This document shows positions 43,088-50,189 of a stretch of 64,000 nt of DNA, piece after piece. Below the pieces are notes generated by a model. It had not been told where the DNA came from, made no database searches, and was given only the letters and a program-made list of their open reading frames with translations. Position 1 is the stretch's first letter. Each line of letters opens with the position of its first letter. Both the position numbers and the translations under genes were made by a program. Origin of the DNA: Bifidobacterium breve (GTDB lineage: Bacteria > Myxococcota_A > UBA796 > SXON01); the NCBI GenBank assembly GCA_943328795.2, contig CALQBK020000002.1:2513-66512 (forward strand). The letters run 5' to 3'.

Positions 43088-44101
43088 CTAGGCGCTCGCC
43101 TGCACCCACGCGCGGAGCATGCCGACGCCGCTCCGGACGTGCGGTGCCGGGTCCCGAGGGTTGTACCATCGAAAGTATGCGTGGAGGTCTGCCGGGCTCT
43201 GCAGCCCCGACCGCGTGGTCTCGACCAGGAACGCCGGGATGCCGAACTCGCCGTACACGTGGTCGATCTCCATGCCCTGGCCGCGGAAGAAGAAGCCCCA
43301 GCGCGAGAGTTGCCTCGGCCGATACGCGTGGGGGCCCATCCCCGCCTGCATGGCCTCGCCGATGGCCTGCAAGCGAGGCCAGTCCGCGGCGCGCTCCCAC
43401 CGCCCGGCCCACGGGTAGTAGATGAACCCCCCGAAGCTGTGCAGCGAGACGAACCCCGAGAACGGGATGTCCCCGGCGGCCGAGTGGGCGCGCAGCAGCG
43501 CGTCGATCGCGCGGGTCTCGGGCTGGGACAGCGGGGCAGGCGACGTCGCGTACCGCGAGGGGAGCAGGTACCGCCAGGCAGCGTGGCTGTCCCGGTTCAC
43601 CGCCCAGTCGCGGTTCAGGTCGACGTGGTCGTGGTTGCCGCGCCGGTAGACGTTGCGGCCGGCCAGCAAGTCCGCCTCGACCTTGCGGCGCCCGTCGACG
43701 TTCACGACGGGGACCACGACCACCTCTACGCCGGGCTCAGGGCGCGCTGCGTAGTCCAGCAGGAACGCGAGGGCGTCCTCCGTCGGGATCCACTCCAGCG
43801 CGTGGATGTTGGCGATCAACAAGAGGCGGCGGGTGACCGGCGACGCCGGGTCGTGCACCGCGTAGCCGCGGATCGGTGCCCCCTCCAGGGTGCAGCCGAC
43901 CACGAACGGGTGGACGACGCCGGGCGAGCGGGTGACCACCGCGTCGATCGCTGCGTACACCTCGGCGGCGAAGTGGTACGCGGGCTCGGGGTGCGGGGTG
44001 ACCGGGCGCTCTACCGGGGACGCCGCGCAGGCCGAGTCCGCGGGAGGGGCGGGCGCGGGGCTGGCCCGGGCCAACGCGACCCCGAGCAGCCACGCGATCA
44101 A
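43088..44101 (-). CDS. M14 family zinc carboxypeptidase, secreted
   Basis: HALEW (HxxE), NVDGRR, DLNRDW, SLHSFG. TTG start overlaps the upstream stop (TTGA 44098-44101). Confidence 0.86.
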   Translation of the reverse strand: MIAWLLGVALARASPAPAPPADSACAASPVERPVTPHPEPAYHFAAEVYAAIDAVVTRSPGVVHPFVVGCTLEGAPIRGYAVHDPASPVTRRLLLIANIHALEWIPTEDALAFLLDYAARPEPGVEVVVVPVVNVDGRRKVEADLLAGRNVYRRGNHDHVDLNRDWAVNRDSHAAWRYLLPSRYATSPAPLSQPETRAIDALLRAHSAAGDIPFSGFVSLHSFGGFIYYPWAGRWERAADWPRLQAIGEAMQAGMGPHAYRPRQLSRWGFFFRGQGMEIDHVYGEFGIPAFLVETTRSGLQSPADLHAYFRWYNPRDPAPHVRSGVGMLRAWVQASA

Positions 44102-44718
44102 CGACGAAATTCCAGCGTGAGCGCGGCCTCCGGGGCCACGATGACGCTGACCTGGTACCCCGTCTCGAGCGTCGACTGCGCGCGGTGCACCGCGATCGCC
44201 CCGCGCACGCCGAGGGTGACGCTCGCGGGCTCCCCGAGTCGGTAGCCGGCCCCGAGGCCGAGTCGCCCACCAACCCCCCCGATGCGGGCGCGGAGCTCGC
44301 CCGACGCCTCGTCGGCGCTGGCCTGATCCTCCTCAGTGTACGCCTCGGACGTGTCGTTGGCGCTCGGCAAGATGCCGTAGAGCCCGACGTCCCCGTACAT
44401 GTCCACCTTGCCCGGGCCAGCCGTCGCGCCGGGCAAGTAGCGGCGGTAGTCAACCCCGAGCCGCGTCGCGCCGAGGCCCTCGGCGGAAGGCGTGTCCGAC
44501 CACGTAGCGGTCGAGAAGCGCACCATCGCGAAGTCCACCAGGATGGCGTCGTGCTTGTCGTACCAGCCCGCGTACACGGTGAGCGGCGGGCGCAGGATGC
44601 CGTCGTACTCCCCGGCGAGCGTGCCGGAGAGCTGGTCGGCGTCCGACCACGCCAACGCGCCGACGCCCGTCGGGATGAACGCCCCGCCGAGCATCACGTG
44701 CCAGAGCGCGGGCGACAC
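44098..44718 (-). CDS. Hypothetical beta-rich (barrel-like) protein
   Basis: Alternating hydrophobic strands, Gly/Tyr-rich, ends ...ALTLEFRR. GTG start immediately after the upstream TAG. Confidence 0.5.
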   Translation of the reverse strand: MSPALWHVMLGGAFIPTGVGALAWSDADQLSGTLAGEYDGILRPPLTVYAGWYDKHDAILVDFAMVRFSTATWSDTPSAEGLGATRLGVDYRRYLPGATAGPGKVDMYGDVGLYGILPSANDTSEAYTEEDQASADEASGELRARIGGVGGRLGLGAGYRLGEPASVTLGVRGAIAVHRAQSTLETGYQVSVIVAPEAALTLEFRR

Positions 44719-46125
44719 CTACCCGCCGAGCCGCTGGACGCCCGCCATCGGGACAGCGAGCCCCGGCTTGAGCGCGAGGGCCTTCTTGTACGCGGTCATC
44801 GCCATGTCGACCTGGTGGATCGCCTCGTACGCCTGGCCGAGCTCGGTCCACGCCCCGTAGTGCTGCGGGAGCAGCGTCGTGGCGTTCCGGAGCGCGCGGA
44901 TCGCGATGTCGGGGCGGTCGAGCGCGACCGCGGACTCGCCGAGCCCAAGCCACGCGTAGCCATTGCAGGAGTCCATCGACAGGGCCGCCCGGTACTTCTG
45001 GATGGCGCTCGCGGCGTCCTTCCCAAGCCGGAGGTCGTCCCCGGCCATCACCTGCTTGCGTGCTTCACCGCGCAGGACCTCGATCGGCGCCTCGCAGTCG
45101 TCAGGCGGGTCGCGCGGGAGGCCCTGCGTGAGCTGGGCGACAGCATCGAGCTTCGGGGCGCTGGAGGTGGGCGGCGGGGTGTTGTACGCCGACGGCGCGA
45201 CCGGGACAGGCGCGGGGTCGGGGGTGTAGGTCGACGTGGCGCTCGGCGACCACGACTGGGTCGGCGCGGGAGCGGGGAGCACGGGCCCGACGACGCCCCC
45301 GACGATGCCGGGCGTGACGGGGTCTGCCGAAGGGGTGTTGAGCGAAGCGTCCGACTCGCCGCGTAGCTCCGCGAGGATCTCGTCATCGTCGAGATCGTCG
45401 AACAGGATGCCGGTGCTCTTCGGCTTGGGCTTGGGCGCCGGCGGGGCCGGGGCCGCGACGGGCGCGGCGTAGGTCGACGCGGGCGCGGCGTAGGTCGACG
45501 TGGGCGCGGGGTAGGACGAAGCAGGGGCGGCGTAGGACGACGCGGGCGCGGCGTAGGATGACGCGGGGGCGGCGTACGCCGGGGGCGTTGCCGTCGGGGC
45601 TTGCGCGCCGGCGACCTGCACGTTCAGCGAGCGACCGGCGACGACGACGGTGACCGTACCGGCTGGGGTTGGGGCGGCGGCGACGGGGGTCGGTGCAGTG
45701 GGCGACCCGCCCTTGGGGGCCGGGGCCGCGCGGAAGGCCGCGGCCGCAGGCGGCTGGCCCGTCGCGCAGACCGACACGTGACCGGCCTCGTCGTCGAAGC
45801 AGAGCCCGGACGGCAGCTGGCAGCTCTGCGCGAAGCAGGACCACTGCGCGGAGGAGGACTTCGCTACATCGCCGCCGCTCGGGACCGACGAGAAGAGGGT
45901 GGTGCGCCCGTCGTCGAAGAACCCGCGCCCGTCACAGGACACCACGTGAAGCCCCGACGCTCGCCAGCCCGCTCCCTCCTTGGAGACCCGGGTGGCCTCG
46001 CCGACCACGTACAGCTCCGTAGAGCACCCGGAGAGCCCGGCGTCGCGGCAGCAGCTACTGCACGTGTCGGCGTTCGAGCCGGCGAACGCGGCGGACGAGA
46101 GGAGCAGCAGCGGGAGCAACGTCAT
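44719..46125 (-). CDS. Secreted protein: Cys-rich N-domain, Pro/Ala/Tyr heptad repeats, C-terminal TPR
   Basis: Signal MTLLPLLLLSSAAFA; 13 Cys in the first about 120 aa; YAAPASS x5-6; KPKPK; TPR-like AIQKYRAALSMDSCNGYAWLGLGE...AYKKALALKP. Confidence 0.72.
   Translation of the reverse strand: MTLLPLLLLSSAAFAGSNADTCSSCCRDAGLSGCSTELYVVGEATRVSKEGAGWRASGLHVVSCDGRGFFDDGRTTLFSSVPSGGDVAKSSSAQWSCFAQSCQLPSGLCFDDEAGHVSVCATGQPPAAAAFRAAPAPKGGSPTAPTPVAAAPTPAGTVTVVVAGRSLNVQVAGAQAPTATPPAYAAPASSYAAPASSYAAPASSYPAPTSTYAAPASTYAAPVAAPAPPAPKPKPKSTGILFDDLDDDEILAELRGESDASLNTPSADPVTPGIVGGVVGPVLPAPAPTQSWSPSATSTYTPDPAPVPVAPSAYNTPPPTSSAPKLDAVAQLTQGLPRDPPDDCEAPIEVLRGEARKQVMAGDDLRLGKDAASAIQKYRAALSMDSCNGYAWLGLGESAVALDRPDIAIRALRNATTLLPQHYGAWTELGQAYEAIHQVDMAMTAYKKALALKPGLAVPMAGVQRLGG
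45461..45586. repeat. 21-bp tandem repeat, about 6 units, coding (YAAPASS heptads)
   Basis: ggcgcggcgtaggtcgacgcg and close variants tile 45461-45586 head to tail. Confidence 0.9.
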
Positions 46126-46134
46126 TCTCTTTTG

Positions 46135-47328
46135 CTACTCCAACACGGGATCGCAGGTTGCTGGTCCGTCCGACGAGCGCCACGAGCCGGTGAGCACGGT
46201 CACGACACCCCCCGCGGGGCAGGTGATCTCGACGACCGGGCAGTGGTTGCCGCTGCCGCAGCCGTCGTCATCGCTGCCGAGGGCCTGGTACGAGTAGCAG
46301 GGGTTGTCCGCGCCGTCGCAGACCCGCATGACGGGGTCGCCCTCGCAGGTGTCCGTACAGCCGCCGCTGCAATCGGCCTGGACCGGGTCTCCCGGCGTGC
46401 AGGTGTAGTTTCCGACGAAGGTCCACCCGCAGTCCCGGGTCTCGCTCGAGTCGTTGCCCGAGCACGCGTCGGTGACCGCCGGCATGTCCTCGGCGTCGAC
46501 CACGGTGTAGGTCGCGTCGGCCGTGTTGTTCGAGTAGTCCAGCTCGGGGATGATCGACTGGAAGTTGACGGCCGCGTGCACGTCGTAAGTGCCTGCGGGC
46601 ACGTCCGTGATGTCGATCCACTGGCAATCCAGGTAGCCGCTGTAGGTGTCGGCCCACCCTTGGGAGATGCCCTGCTTGTCGCAGTTGTAGCGGGCGCGGG
46701 GGCGCGCGTCGTCGGTCCAGGGCTCGAAGTCCTCGAGGCAGAACGCCTGCTTGTGACCCTCGGCGACCTGGTTCGAGTCGGCGTCCAGCAGGGTGTACTG
46801 TGCGTAGCCGTCGAAGTGGTAGTGCTGGTGGCACTCCGAGTAGTGGAAGAGCGGGTTGCCGGTCGGGTCACCGAATTTCAGGTCGGACGTGCCGTAGTTC
46901 GGCGTCGTCAGGTCAAATCGCAACAGCCGGCGCCACCCGGGCTGCAGCACGCACCCCTCGACGATCGTGCAGTCGTCCTCCTCGAAGTACTTCCACTCCT
47001 CGACGAGCCCGTCCTGGAGCCGCTCCTGGTCGGCCGCCAGGTCGGGGAGCGGGCACGTGTCGTCCACGGTCGTGGTGCAAACGGGGGTCGCGGTGTCCTC
47101 GCAGCACTCGGTGCAGCACGCCGTCCCGGTGGGGCACAGGTCGGCGGCGGGGTCACACGCGTCGCCCTCGGAGAGCGCGGGGGACTCGGAGTCATCGCCA
47201 CCGTTGCCTCCATTTCCGCCGTTTCCACCTTCGCTGTCATCCACCGTTGGCGTAGTGGTGCGGCAAGCGAACAGGGACACGAGGCCAAGGGCGAGGAGCA
47301 TGAAACGACCTGGAAGGGGCGTCAGCAT
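46135..47328 (-). CDS. Lysyl oxidase (LOX) family copper amine oxidase, lipoprotein
   Basis: RRLLRFDLTTPNYGTSD, SECHQHYH (Cu His), AEGHKQAFCLED, QGISQGWADTYSGYLDCQWIDITDVPAGTY, PELDYSNN. These are colinear with the human LOX catalytic domain as I remember it. Lipobox LVSLFAC; GGNGGNGGNGG linker. Confidence 0.92.
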   Translation of the reverse strand: MLTPLPGRFMLLALGLVSLFACRTTTPTVDDSEGGNGGNGGNGGDDSESPALSEGDACDPAADLCPTGTACCTECCEDTATPVCTTTVDDTCPLPDLAADQERLQDGLVEEWKYFEEDDCTIVEGCVLQPGWRRLLRFDLTTPNYGTSDLKFGDPTGNPLFHYSECHQHYHFDGYAQYTLLDADSNQVAEGHKQAFCLEDFEPWTDDARPRARYNCDKQGISQGWADTYSGYLDCQWIDITDVPAGTYDVHAAVNFQSIIPELDYSNNTADATYTVVDAEDMPAVTDACSGNDSSETRDCGWTFVGNYTCTPGDPVQADCSGGCTDTCEGDPVMRVCDGADNPCYSYQALGSDDDGCGSGNHCPVVEITCPAGGVVTVLTGSWRSSDGPATCDPVLE

Positions 47329-47376
47329 AGCCCACGGCCGGCCGCGAGGGCGTCAAGAAGCCCTGGACCCCTCGGC

Positions 47377-49665
47377 TCAGTAGACGACGATGCGGTAGCG
47401 GCGCTCGATGGGGCCCGCGATGGTCACGTCCAGCCCACCGACGCTCGCGGTCCCGTTGGTCGTGTCCACGGACGTCTCGGCCACCGAGGCGGTGCCGGAA
47501 ACCGTGTAGGTCGTGCCGTCTGCCTCGACGAAGTGGGACGAGAGGCCTTGCCCTGACCCGAAGATGTAGACCGTGCGGCCAGTGTCCACCTCGTCCCGGG
47601 TGACGAGCCCCGAGAGCGGGCCGTCTACCAGTGTGTCCGCGGGGTCGGTGTACATCGGCACGATCGCGCCCACGGGGGCGAAGACCGCGATGCTGTCGAG
47701 CGGGACCGAGAACTCGCCGCTGGTCGCGGGGGCGCCCGTCCAAAAGTCGAACCACGCGGTCTCGGTGGGCAGGTCGACCTGTCGGGAGAGCGCGCCCTCG
47801 GCTAGCACCGGCGCGACCAGCAGGTCCCCGAGGAGCCACGCGTCCATCCGGCCCCAGCTCTCCGCGGGGTAGGTCAGGAAAGGGGCGCGGACGACCGGCG
47901 TGCCCTCGGACTGGGCGAGCACGGCGAGGCCCTGGAGGTAGGGCGCGAGCCGCCCGTGCACTTGGGACCAGCGCGCGTAGAACGCGAGGGTCTCGTCGTC
48001 GCTGTCGAACTGCCAGTCGTCCTCGGCGAAGGCCCCGTGGTGGGTCCGCATGATGGGGGTCATCGCGCCGAGCGTACACCAACGCCACCAGAGCTCCTTG
48101 GTGGACGGGTCGTTGCCGATCGACTGGTACCCGCCGATGTCGTGCGTGAAGAGCGGCACGCCGGCGATGCCCGCGCCGATGCCCATGGGGAGCACCGAGG
48201 GGAGGCCGTCGTCGGCGTCGAAGCTGGTGCGCTGGTCCCCGGCCCAGGCGACGGGGGAGCGCGTCGGCGAACCCGTCCAGCCCGAGCGGGTGAACATCAC
48301 CCCGGCGGCCTGCCCGGCTACGTCACCGTTCAGCACGCTCGCGTTGGTGTCCTGCCACCACAGCGGGTACGCGTTGTGGTCGTCCATCGCGTCGCCGTCG
48401 GCCAACACGGCGTCGGTCGGCAGCCACTCCGCGTAGTCGGCCATCCACCCGGTGAAGCCGATGTCGACCGCGGCCTGCATCTTGGAGGCCGCCCAGTCCC
48501 GCGCGTCCTGCCGCGTGAGGTCGAGCACGCTCGTCGGCTCGAAGGTCATGCCCGTGAACGTGTACGGCGTGCCGTCTTCGTGCTTGATCACGAGATCGCT
48601 GGCTTCGTCCCAGGAGGGGTTGCCCTCCACCAGGAACGGCTGGAAGTACGCGAACCACTGGAACCCGTTCGCCGCGAGCTCCGCCGCGATGCCGCTCGGG
48701 TCCGGGTAGAGCGTCTCGTCGACCTCCCAGTTCGGCAGCAGGTGGTAGCCGTACGCGGAGTCCTCGCCGCCCTTCCAGTCCTCGGTCCAGATCACGCCGC
48801 TCAGCGCGCCGCTCTCGCGAAGCTCGCTGGCGACGGTGCGGACGCGCTCGGCGCCGCCTACGGCGTCGTTCCAAGGCGCGTACGCCCACGCCGGGGGCAG
48901 CACGGGTGTCCCCGACCGCAACGCGTGCGCCTGGACCGCCTCGAGCGGGGAGTCGACGTCGTAAAACAGGATCTCGGTCACGCCGTCCCACGTCGTCGCG
49001 GACCACGTGTCCGACGTGCAGAGGTCCACCTCTACGCGGGCCTGGGTCACGAGCTCGACGCCCAGCGGGTCCGGCCGAATGAAGAACGGGTCCGGGTAGC
49101 TCGACGCGTGGCGCGTGCCGGTCAGGAACCAGTCGTCGCCCTGCGTCTCGGTGTCTGACTTGCCGATCCCCGGCTCGCTGACCCACAAGGGGAAGGCCTG
49201 CCCGACGTGGTCGACGTCTTGCGCGTGCTCGCCAAACCCGGCGAAGTGGTCGTCCCCGGTGCAGGGGACCGAGAAGCGCGTGCGGTTGACGTCGCCGTCG
49301 GCGGACGCTACGCCGATCGCGAGGATCCCCGTGCTCAGCTGCGCCACGGACACCTGGCCGAGCGCGTTGCCGTCGGCGTCGTCCAGCTCCCAGGTCAGCG
49401 CGGGGTCGCGCCCGCTCGGGTGCCCGTGTGGCGCGACTGCCGTCCACTCCACGGTCTCGTCGTCAAAGCGGTAGCTCCCGGTCTGAAACTCCACGCTGGC
49501 CGAGCCGGTGCCGAGCTCCAATGCGAGCCCGGAGACCAGCGCAGTGCCGTCGTCGCGGAGGACGTCGAAGCCGGCCTCGGTCGGGACGACCTGCCAGGCG
49601 CCGATGGTCCGGTCGGGGGAGCAGCCCGTGAGCAGGGTGATCGCGGCGAAGAGCGTTGGGGGCAT
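47377..49665 (-). CDS. Glycoside hydrolase family 31 (alpha-glucosidase/xylosidase-like) lipoprotein
   Basis: GVIWTEDWKGG, FTGWMADYAEW (nucleophile region), AWAGDQ, THDIGGY, IMRTHHG. Lipobox ITLLTGC. GGGGAG upstream of ATG 49665. Confidence 0.92.
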   Translation of the reverse strand: MPPTLFAAITLLTGCSPDRTIGAWQVVPTEAGFDVLRDDGTALVSGLALELGTGSASVEFQTGSYRFDDETVEWTAVAPHGHPSGRDPALTWELDDADGNALGQVSVAQLSTGILAIGVASADGDVNRTRFSVPCTGDDHFAGFGEHAQDVDHVGQAFPLWVSEPGIGKSDTETQGDDWFLTGTRHASSYPDPFFIRPDPLGVELVTQARVEVDLCTSDTWSATTWDGVTEILFYDVDSPLEAVQAHALRSGTPVLPPAWAYAPWNDAVGGAERVRTVASELRESGALSGVIWTEDWKGGEDSAYGYHLLPNWEVDETLYPDPSGIAAELAANGFQWFAYFQPFLVEGNPSWDEASDLVIKHEDGTPYTFTGMTFEPTSVLDLTRQDARDWAASKMQAAVDIGFTGWMADYAEWLPTDAVLADGDAMDDHNAYPLWWQDTNASVLNGDVAGQAAGVMFTRSGWTGSPTRSPVAWAGDQRTSFDADDGLPSVLPMGIGAGIAGVPLFTHDIGGYQSIGNDPSTKELWWRWCTLGAMTPIMRTHHGAFAEDDWQFDSDDETLAFYARWSQVHGRLAPYLQGLAVLAQSEGTPVVRAPFLTYPAESWGRMDAWLLGDLLVAPVLAEGALSRQVDLPTETAWFDFWTGAPATSGEFSVPLDSIAVFAPVGAIVPMYTDPADTLVDGPLSGLVTRDEVDTGRTVYIFGSGQGLSSHFVEADGTTYTVSGTASVAETSVDTTNGTASVGGLDVTIAGPIERRYRIVVY

Positions 49666-49730
49666 CTCCCCGGGGTATCCCCCGACGCGACCGCATGCGG
49701 TCGGCCGCTGGTGGCGATAGCTTGTGCGGC

Positions 49731-50189
49731 ATGCCCGAGCCCAAGTCGATCGCGTCCGAAGCCGATGTCCGCGCCGTGTTGGCGGCGAACGACGCATTTT
49801 ACAGGGCGTTCGTCGCGGGGGACACGCTCCGGATGGACCTCGTGTGGTCCGGCCACGATGGCGACACGTGCATCCACCCGGGTGCGGAGGCCATCATCGG
49901 GCCCATCAACGTGCAGAACTCGTGGCGGCGGATGTTCGGCTCCGGGGAGCGCCTGTCGATCCGTGTGTCCGAGCTGCGCGTCGATATCTACGGCACCACC
50001 GCGAAGGTGCACCTGGTCGAGAACGTCAGCCGGGGCGCCGGGGCGCCGCTCGTCGCCCGGGTCGCGTGCACCAACTTGTTCCTCCGCACCGAAGACGGCT
50101 GGCGCATGACGCTCCACCACGGGGCGTTGATCTCGGACGACCACGAGCCGGAGCTCGAGCCCGACCCGGACACCAGCGACTTCAACTGA
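49731..50189 (+). CDS. SnoaL/NTF2-like (DUF4440-type) protein
   Basis: EADVRAVLAANDAFYRAFVAGD...CIHPG...W...TNLFLRTEDGWRMTLHH matches the NTF2-like fold pattern. Confidence 0.7.
   Translation: MPEPKSIASEADVRAVLAANDAFYRAFVAGDTLRMDLVWSGHDGDTCIHPGAEAIIGPINVQNSWRRMFGSGERLSIRVSELRVDIYGTTAKVHLVENVSRGAGAPLVARVACTNLFLRTEDGWRMTLHHGALISDDHEPELEPDPDTSDFN

Follow-up and report, generated by a model that had tools for sequence, protein, structure and literature searches.

The window, a stretch of 64,000 nucleotides from the MAG of an uncultured myxobacterium (4.79 Mb in 298 contigs, 86% complete), carries a gene resembling animal lysyl oxidase (LOX), the collagen-cross-linking enzyme. Does this gene encode an intact member of the family, and what do the segments on either side of its catalytic domain contribute? 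A first-pass annotation, made from the sequence alone, had described a bacterial LOX that retains all cofactor residues and adds a lipobox, a GGN linker, an N-terminal cysteine cluster and a tail with 12 cysteines. Our analysis indicates that the gene, the only LOX gene in the MAG, is complete and probably encodes a lipid-anchored relative of the animal enzyme. All four additions to the LOX domain are real but, apart from the GGN repeat itself, they are not peculiar to this gene.

The open reading frame was recovered exactly as annotated, on the minus strand and with 397 codons for amino acids (Table 1). Two in-frame ATG codons, Met1 and Met10, are possible starts. Public gene calls place the start at Met10 (388 aa, P0002), and the lipobox is kept with either start. 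Every string quoted in the annotation was found in the translation: LVSLFAC at residues 16-22, GGNGGNGGNGG at 34-44, ECHQHYH at 165-171, AEGHKQAFCLED at 189-200 and ADTYSGYLDCQWIDITDV at 226-243. The GC content of the gene region (0.69) is the same as that of its surroundings and gives no sign of recent horizontal transfer.

Table 1. Features of the LOX protein and of the neighbouring genes (positions in the window; res, residues)
Feature	Position	Strand	Remarks
LOX-family lipoprotein gene, whole	46135..47328	-	397 aa; alternative start Met10 (ATG 47299-47301) gives the 388-aa database form; 9-nt gap to next gene
Signal peptide and lipobox, res 1-22	47263..47328	-	LALGLVSLFAC (res 12-22); Cys22 is the predicted lipidated residue
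Disordered acidic/Gly-Asn tether, res 23-55	47164..47262	-	includes GGNGGNGGNGG at 47197-47229
N-terminal Cys knot, res 56-92	47053..47163	-	8 Cys; pLDDT about 95 in full-length model
Lysyl oxidase catalytic domain, res 93-276	46501..47052	-	PF01186 E = 5e-38; LOXL2 5ZE3 by sequence and fold (Foldseek E = 3e-15)
Cu-binding HxHxH, H167/H169/H171	46816..46830	-	aligns with LOXL2 H626/H628/H630
Predicted LTQ lysine K193	46750..46752	-	aligns with LOXL2 K653
Predicted LTQ tyrosine Y229	46642..46644	-	aligns with LOXL2 Y689
C-terminal 12-Cys beta-sandwich module, res 277-397	46138..46500	-	AF2 of tail alone
GH31 glycosidase	47377-49797	-	Pfam; 48-nt gap to LOX
Secreted Cys-rich/Pro-Ala-repeat/TPR protein	44719-46125	-	Pfam; abuts next gene, no gap
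206-aa protein	44098-44718	-	no Pfam match; 4-nt overlap with next gene
M14 carboxypeptidase	43088-44101	-	Pfam

Membership of the lysyl oxidase family was borne out by profile, by alignment and by fold. Residues 131-274 matched Pfam PF01186 (E = 5.1e-38; 131.2 bits against a cut-off of 20.4 bits), and a search of the whole genome recovered the same match. A phmmer search of PDB sequences returned human LOXL2 (5ZE3) as the only match (E = 1.5e-27, residues 83-270). At the level of sequence, this agreement with PF01186 and LOXL2 is far above chance. The annotation had recognised three catalytic blocks in the order of human LOX; in our alignment they correspond column for column with LOXL2, the comparison being with LOXL2 and the Pfam model. 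The structure was predicted using AF2 with an alignment of 78 sequences, giving a mean pLDDT of 89 and a pTM of 0.80, with disorder confined to residues 1-45. The top Foldseek match of this model in the PDB was again 5ZE3 (E = 3.4e-15).

In the LOXL2 structure the metal ligands are His626, His628, His630 and Tyr689, the precursors of the lysine tyrosylquinone (LTQ) cofactor are Lys653 and Tyr689, a Ca2+ site is formed by Asp549, Leu550, Glu722, Asp724, Asn727 and Asn728, and there are five disulfides (PMC5899467). We mapped these residues onto the window protein via the phmmer alignment with 5ZE3 and scored their conservation in an alignment of 78 homologues. The cofactor residues are retained, as the annotation had claimed, with the copper-binding histidine triad and the LTQ lysine and tyrosine all aligned to LOXL2 (Table 1). 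H167, H169 and H171 are histidines in 74 of the 78 homologues, and K193 and Y229 are invariant (78/78). The Ca2+ site aligns as well, its equivalents (D96, L97, E262, D264, N267 and N268) being either conserved or replaced conservatively. The position of the fourth histidine of animal LOX (H289 in human LOX) is occupied by Ser164, and serine is found there in bacterial LOX generally (Grau-Bové et al. 2015, PMC4448552). Four of the 78 full-length homologues have lost at least one copper-binding histidine (T/V, Q/S and L/R at these positions) while keeping the LTQ lysine and tyrosine; they may represent LOX-like members of the clade that lack catalytic activity.

The window protein shares with LOXL2, and with animal LOX/LOXL proteins, the beta-sandwich fold, the HxHxH motif, the LTQ lysine and tyrosine and the Ca2+ site. 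In the alignment, three of the five core disulfide positions of LOXL2 have counterparts, two of them with a shifted partner cysteine. The C579-C695 disulfide has direct equivalents in C120 and C235; C625 and C657 correspond to C166 and C197, whose probable partners have shifted (C126 and C216). All six of these cysteines are invariant. The C663-C685 disulfide is lost, with P203 and W225 in its place, and nothing corresponds to C732-C746. In its fine structure, the active site may therefore differ from that of LOXL2; the disulfide pairings and the metal-site geometry are read from the alignment. Unlike the animal proteins, the window protein lacks SRCR domains and a propeptide; its lipoprotein signal, N-terminal Cys knot and 12-Cys C-terminal module are in turn absent from them.

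LOX genes have been catalogued in five bacterial phyla and in archaea; most of their architectures are simple, and a signal peptide or transmembrane region is present in some and absent from others (Grau-Bové et al. 2015, PMC4448552). Our search for homologous proteins returned 1,456 relatives, the best of them 74-77% identical and many full-length. Scanning prokaryotic genomes, one for each species, identified at least 583 LOX loci, almost all from Myxococcota by record title, including the cultured Sorangium, Polyangiales, Sandaracinaceae, Nannocystaceae, Haliangiales, Kofleriaceae and Bradymonadia. Two loci, L011 (CAMBIK010000013.1) and L060 (CAMAWH010000004.1), come from MAGs titled 'Klebsiella pneumoniae' and carry Myxococcota-type LOX proteins that are 47-50% identical to the query; these organism labels look wrong. 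Among the best 80 loci, 48 have the 12-Cys tail, mostly with exactly 12 cysteines. As judged from the aligned homologues, the combination of lipobox, linker, knot and tail is standard in a large clade of Myxococcota LOX proteins. LOX is carried by 19 of 41 related genomes, with 17 among the 25 from the same family and 2 among the 16 from other parts of the order, which marks it as a patchy accessory gene; it was found in none of the 14 control genomes.

The closest known systems include myxobacterial LOX proteins such as that of Sorangium cellulosum (WP_012233967.1), whose Cys-rich C-terminal domain was mentioned in 2019 (PMC6452851), and P0074 of So ce233. These proteins share with the window protein both the LOX domain and the 12-Cys C-terminal domain behind it, at 39-46% identity over about 76% of the length. 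The window protein falls in a shorter subgroup from uncultured Myxococcota of freshwater type, in which the nearest MAG proteins are 74-77% identical. Members of this subgroup show a clear lipobox and an N-terminal knot of the CCTxCC type, whereas P0074 (Sorangium sp. So ce233) has a long and different N-terminus without the aligned lipobox cysteine. NCBI labels the Sorangium and other Myxococcota homologues as 'lysyl oxidase family protein', and our literature searches turned up no study on the function of any myxobacterial LOX.

A gene beside LOX could point to its substrate. The LOX gene is the second of five tightly packed minus-strand genes (43088-49797), lying between a GH31 glycosidase gene and three genes for a Cys/TPR protein, a 206-aa protein and an M14 carboxypeptidase (Table 1). 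A pattern scan of the region, which is weak evidence, returned neither promoter-like sites nor, on the minus strand, terminator-like ones. The nearest relative L002, a lake MAG with a 74% identical LOX, has the five genes in the same order, which is the case in none of the other 79 loci. A search of the 80 loci with the four neighbours using tblastn likewise matched L002 only, and a conserved operon partner was rejected. Furthermore, unbiased clustering of 2,235 flanking ORFs revealed no family-wide neighbour, sharing being limited to close relatives; the largest cluster, from 12 loci, resembles an Arg-rich ORF read out of frame. We therefore rejected a family-wide partner or substrate gene. 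A lineage-specific operon at 43088-49797 is plausible.

Within this cluster, the N-terminal cysteine domain of the Cys/TPR protein is conserved in L002 (51% identity) and its YAAPASS repeats are not. The repeats are encoded by a 21-bp coding tandem repeat at 45459-45576, within the minus-strand gene at 44719-46125, with 5.6 copies, 86% matches and YAAPASS-type heptads. For this lineage, the idea that the downstream Cys/PA-repeat/TPR protein is a dedicated LOX substrate is neither supported nor excluded by these data; a dedicated and conserved substrate gene is not supported.

As the substrate of the enzyme, we tentatively favour the peptidyl lysine of proteins from the envelope, the matrix or prey over small amines, because the LOX active site is surface-exposed and the enzyme comes with a tether and a binding-type module. 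The exposed active site of LOXL2 suits macromolecular substrates (PMC5899467). Neither collagen nor elastin is known as a substrate in the source organism. It is possible, if doubtful, that the same enzyme instead acts on small soluble amines such as polyamines, amino sugars, aminoglycoside- or polymyxin-type antibiotics or taurine, and so serves nitrogen scavenging, detoxification or the local release of H2O2 against competitors or prey. This alternative draws on the only prokaryotic LOX with measured activity, HTU-LOX of the archaeon Haloterrigena turkmenica, an active, BAPN-sensitive and Cu-dependent amine oxidase of relaxed specificity that accepts Lys-containing polymers and many amines, including taurine, glycine, aminoglycosides and polymyxin (Pestov et al. 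2019, PMC6452851). HTU-LOX resembles the window protein in having a prokaryotic LOX domain and an N-terminal hydrophobic signal, but it comes from an archaeon and lacks the Cys-rich tail. Two of our own results are also consistent with small amines: the family as a whole shares no substrate-like partner gene, and the patchy occurrence of LOX (19 of 41 relatives) is as expected of a niche trait. An active site that lies open at the surface, as in LOXL2, fits macromolecules better, however, and an oxidase of small molecules would need neither a binding-type module nor a membrane tether. Peptidyl lysine thus remains our preferred, tentative reading.

That tether depends on the N-terminus. The annotation had recognised a lipoprotein signal in LVSLFAC, and LALGLVSLFAC indeed fits a PROSITE PS51257-like core pattern. 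The lipobox cysteine is aligned in 71 of 78 homologues although the flanking sequence is unconserved, and the genome encodes both LspA (PF01252, 122.9 bits) and Lgt (PF01790, three matches of up to 166 bits). It is improbable that the protein is instead translated from Met10 with a Sec signal that is cut by signal peptidase I or kept as an uncleaved anchor, which would yield a soluble secreted or a helix-anchored enzyme. The cysteine follows L-F-A in the manner of a lipobox, with a large residue at -3 that is poor for signal peptidase I, and it stands out as a conserved residue amid unconserved sequence. The database gene call at Met10, which leaves no charged n-region, is in keeping with the non-lipoprotein alternative, but with the Met1 start Arg8 supplies the usual positive charge. 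The alternative also has on its side the very short N-termini before the cysteine in several homologues and the 7 of 78 homologues in which the aligned cysteine is absent.

The annotation had further argued that membrane tethering would localise oxidation to the cell surface. The lipobox supports the tether, but the surface location does not follow from it: in a diderm bacterium a lipoprotein may just as well face the periplasm, and the sequence favours neither side. The residue at +2 after the lipid cysteine is arginine, which allows no reliable prediction of sorting; arginine at +2 is not known as a sorting signal of Myxococcus lipoproteins.

The predicted tether that follows is disordered, with AF2 pLDDT below 50 over most of residues 1-43 and a rise only by about residue 50. 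The GGN/acidic linker of the annotation is therefore present and disordered. What is conserved is a low-complexity acidic linker: homologue linkers are acidic or rich in Gly, Ser, Thr or Pro and vary in length and composition, and the GGN repeat is unique to the window gene. Tandem Repeats Finder did not report it as a DNA tandem repeat. We regard the GGN repeat as incidental. The Cys-rich pre-domain was found as described, with eight cysteines, of which C65, C75, C84 and C92 are conserved in at least 75 of 78 homologues; this knot had no match in Pfam or NCBIfam.

The C-terminal extension has exactly the 12 cysteines that had been counted and, at 121 aa, is somewhat longer than the roughly 110 aa first given. 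When the tail was modelled alone, AF2 returned a seven-stranded beta-sandwich (pLDDT 93.2, pTM 0.88). Each of its 12 cysteines is at least 90% conserved in an alignment of 43 tails. None of these 43 tails matched Pfam, there was no match in NCBIfam, and a tail profile searched against PDB sequences gave only a chance match (best E = 0.76). Foldseek identified no significant match in the PDB (best 6v4b, E = 0.033, TM at most 0.5). The nearest shapes, all weak, are beta-sandwiches of binding or adhesin type, namely the N-terminal domain of DeCLIC (E = 0.03) and the collagen-binding domain of ColH (3jqw; TM 0.50, rmsd 3.2 Å over 100 columns, E = 0.07), followed by Epa/Flo adhesins and a carbohydrate-binding module. 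Assignment of the tail to the PPC/collagenase collagen-binding-domain superfamily was rejected, there being no significant sequence or fold match and only a resemblance in shape.

We searched the tail profile against 1.84 billion representative proteins and obtained 672 clusters (at 50% identity) with E ≤ 1e-3, 376 of them with E ≤ 1e-10. The module occurs at varied positions in the matched proteins and in one to three copies each. Half of the tail-bearing representatives of at least 300 aa (41 of 81) also have a LOX domain. The ADYC domain (PF20032), a domain without assigned function, is present in 12 of the 81, with the module N-terminal to it; these proteins (P0188, P0212 and ten other representatives) are 450-540 aa long and form a recurrent second architecture. 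A protein kinase domain is found in two of the 81, both Ser/Thr kinase proteins, and Kelch repeats, an M1 aminopeptidase and HYR, LTD or DUF4215 domains occur in single cases, while in about 20 Pfam recognises no further domain. P0146, the M1 peptidase, carries the module at its C-terminus and has a lipobox of its own. In the window's genome no gene other than LOX bears the tail.

Within the LOX family, the tail occurs twice in tandem in three of the best 80 loci. Tandem modules with 24 cysteines were seen at L012:6553-7638, L032:6568-7305 and L036:634-1350, and L078:5695-7020 has tandem tail modules with 55 cysteines over 442 aa. At L039:5495-5875 a copy of the module lies upstream of the LOX domain and not downstream.

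The variety of partner domains, positions and copy numbers indicates that the tail is a mobile extracytoplasmic module that prefers LOX and not a LOX-specific extension. Its most likely role would be that of a reusable non-catalytic unit that positions the enzyme by binding to a target or scaffold; because the fold matches are weak (best E = 0.03, TM at most 0.5), this binding role is a guess. It is very improbable that the protein is an inert LOX-like binding pseudo-enzyme, or the tail an autoinhibitory pro-domain removed for activity: homologues with a damaged His triad exist, and N-terminal truncation raises the activity of HTU-LOX, so that accessory segments can inhibit (PMC6452851), but the window protein keeps every catalytic, Cu and Ca residue, and a tail found on unrelated enzymes and in tandem copies fits a module better.

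We consider it likely that the product of this gene is a copper amine oxidase of the lysyl oxidase family, exported and anchored by lipid, with an architecture typical of Myxococcota. The precursor would be exported by the Sec system, and Lgt, LspA and Lnt would acylate Cys22 and cleave before it. The acidic disordered linker of about 30 residues would then tether a compact ectodomain to the membrane. This ectodomain would have three parts, the 8-Cys knot, the LOX beta-sandwich and the 12-Cys beta-sandwich, and has 26 cysteines after Cys22, enough for up to 13 disulfides, which would form in the oxidising periplasm or outside the cell. Cu2+ would be bound via H167, H169 and H171 and Ca2+ via D96, L97, E262, D264, N267 and N268, and K193 and Y229 would be joined as LTQ by Cu2+-dependent self-processing. 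The mature enzyme, placed at its target or scaffold by the C-terminal module, would convert primary amines, of which protein-bound lysine side chains are the most probable, to aldehydes with release of H2O2 and NH3.

Such enzymes and the Cys-rich tail are already known in myxobacteria, and this gene adds no new kind of enzyme; what is new here is the mobility of the tail, mentioned earlier for the Sorangium LOX, and its lack of a curated family. Bacterial LOX proteins have been catalogued since 2015. The Myxococcota LOX emerges as a conserved, three-domain, disulfide-rich and probable lipoprotein. An unlikely reading is that the tail is an undescribed Myxococcota-wide targeting domain that docks exported enzymes (LOX, M1 peptidase, ADYC proteins and sensor kinases) onto one component of the myxobacterial envelope or extracellular matrix, the lipid-anchored LOX cross-linking the lysines of that matrix. 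If true, a bacterial lineage noted for its multicellular behaviour would have an equivalent of the matrix cross-linking seen in animals. The PDB holds no bacterial LOX structure, and the window protein, a compact and confidently modelled LOX, may be a tractable model for LTQ biogenesis. The tail is a candidate targeting module, and its binding partner could reveal the target of bacterial LOX.
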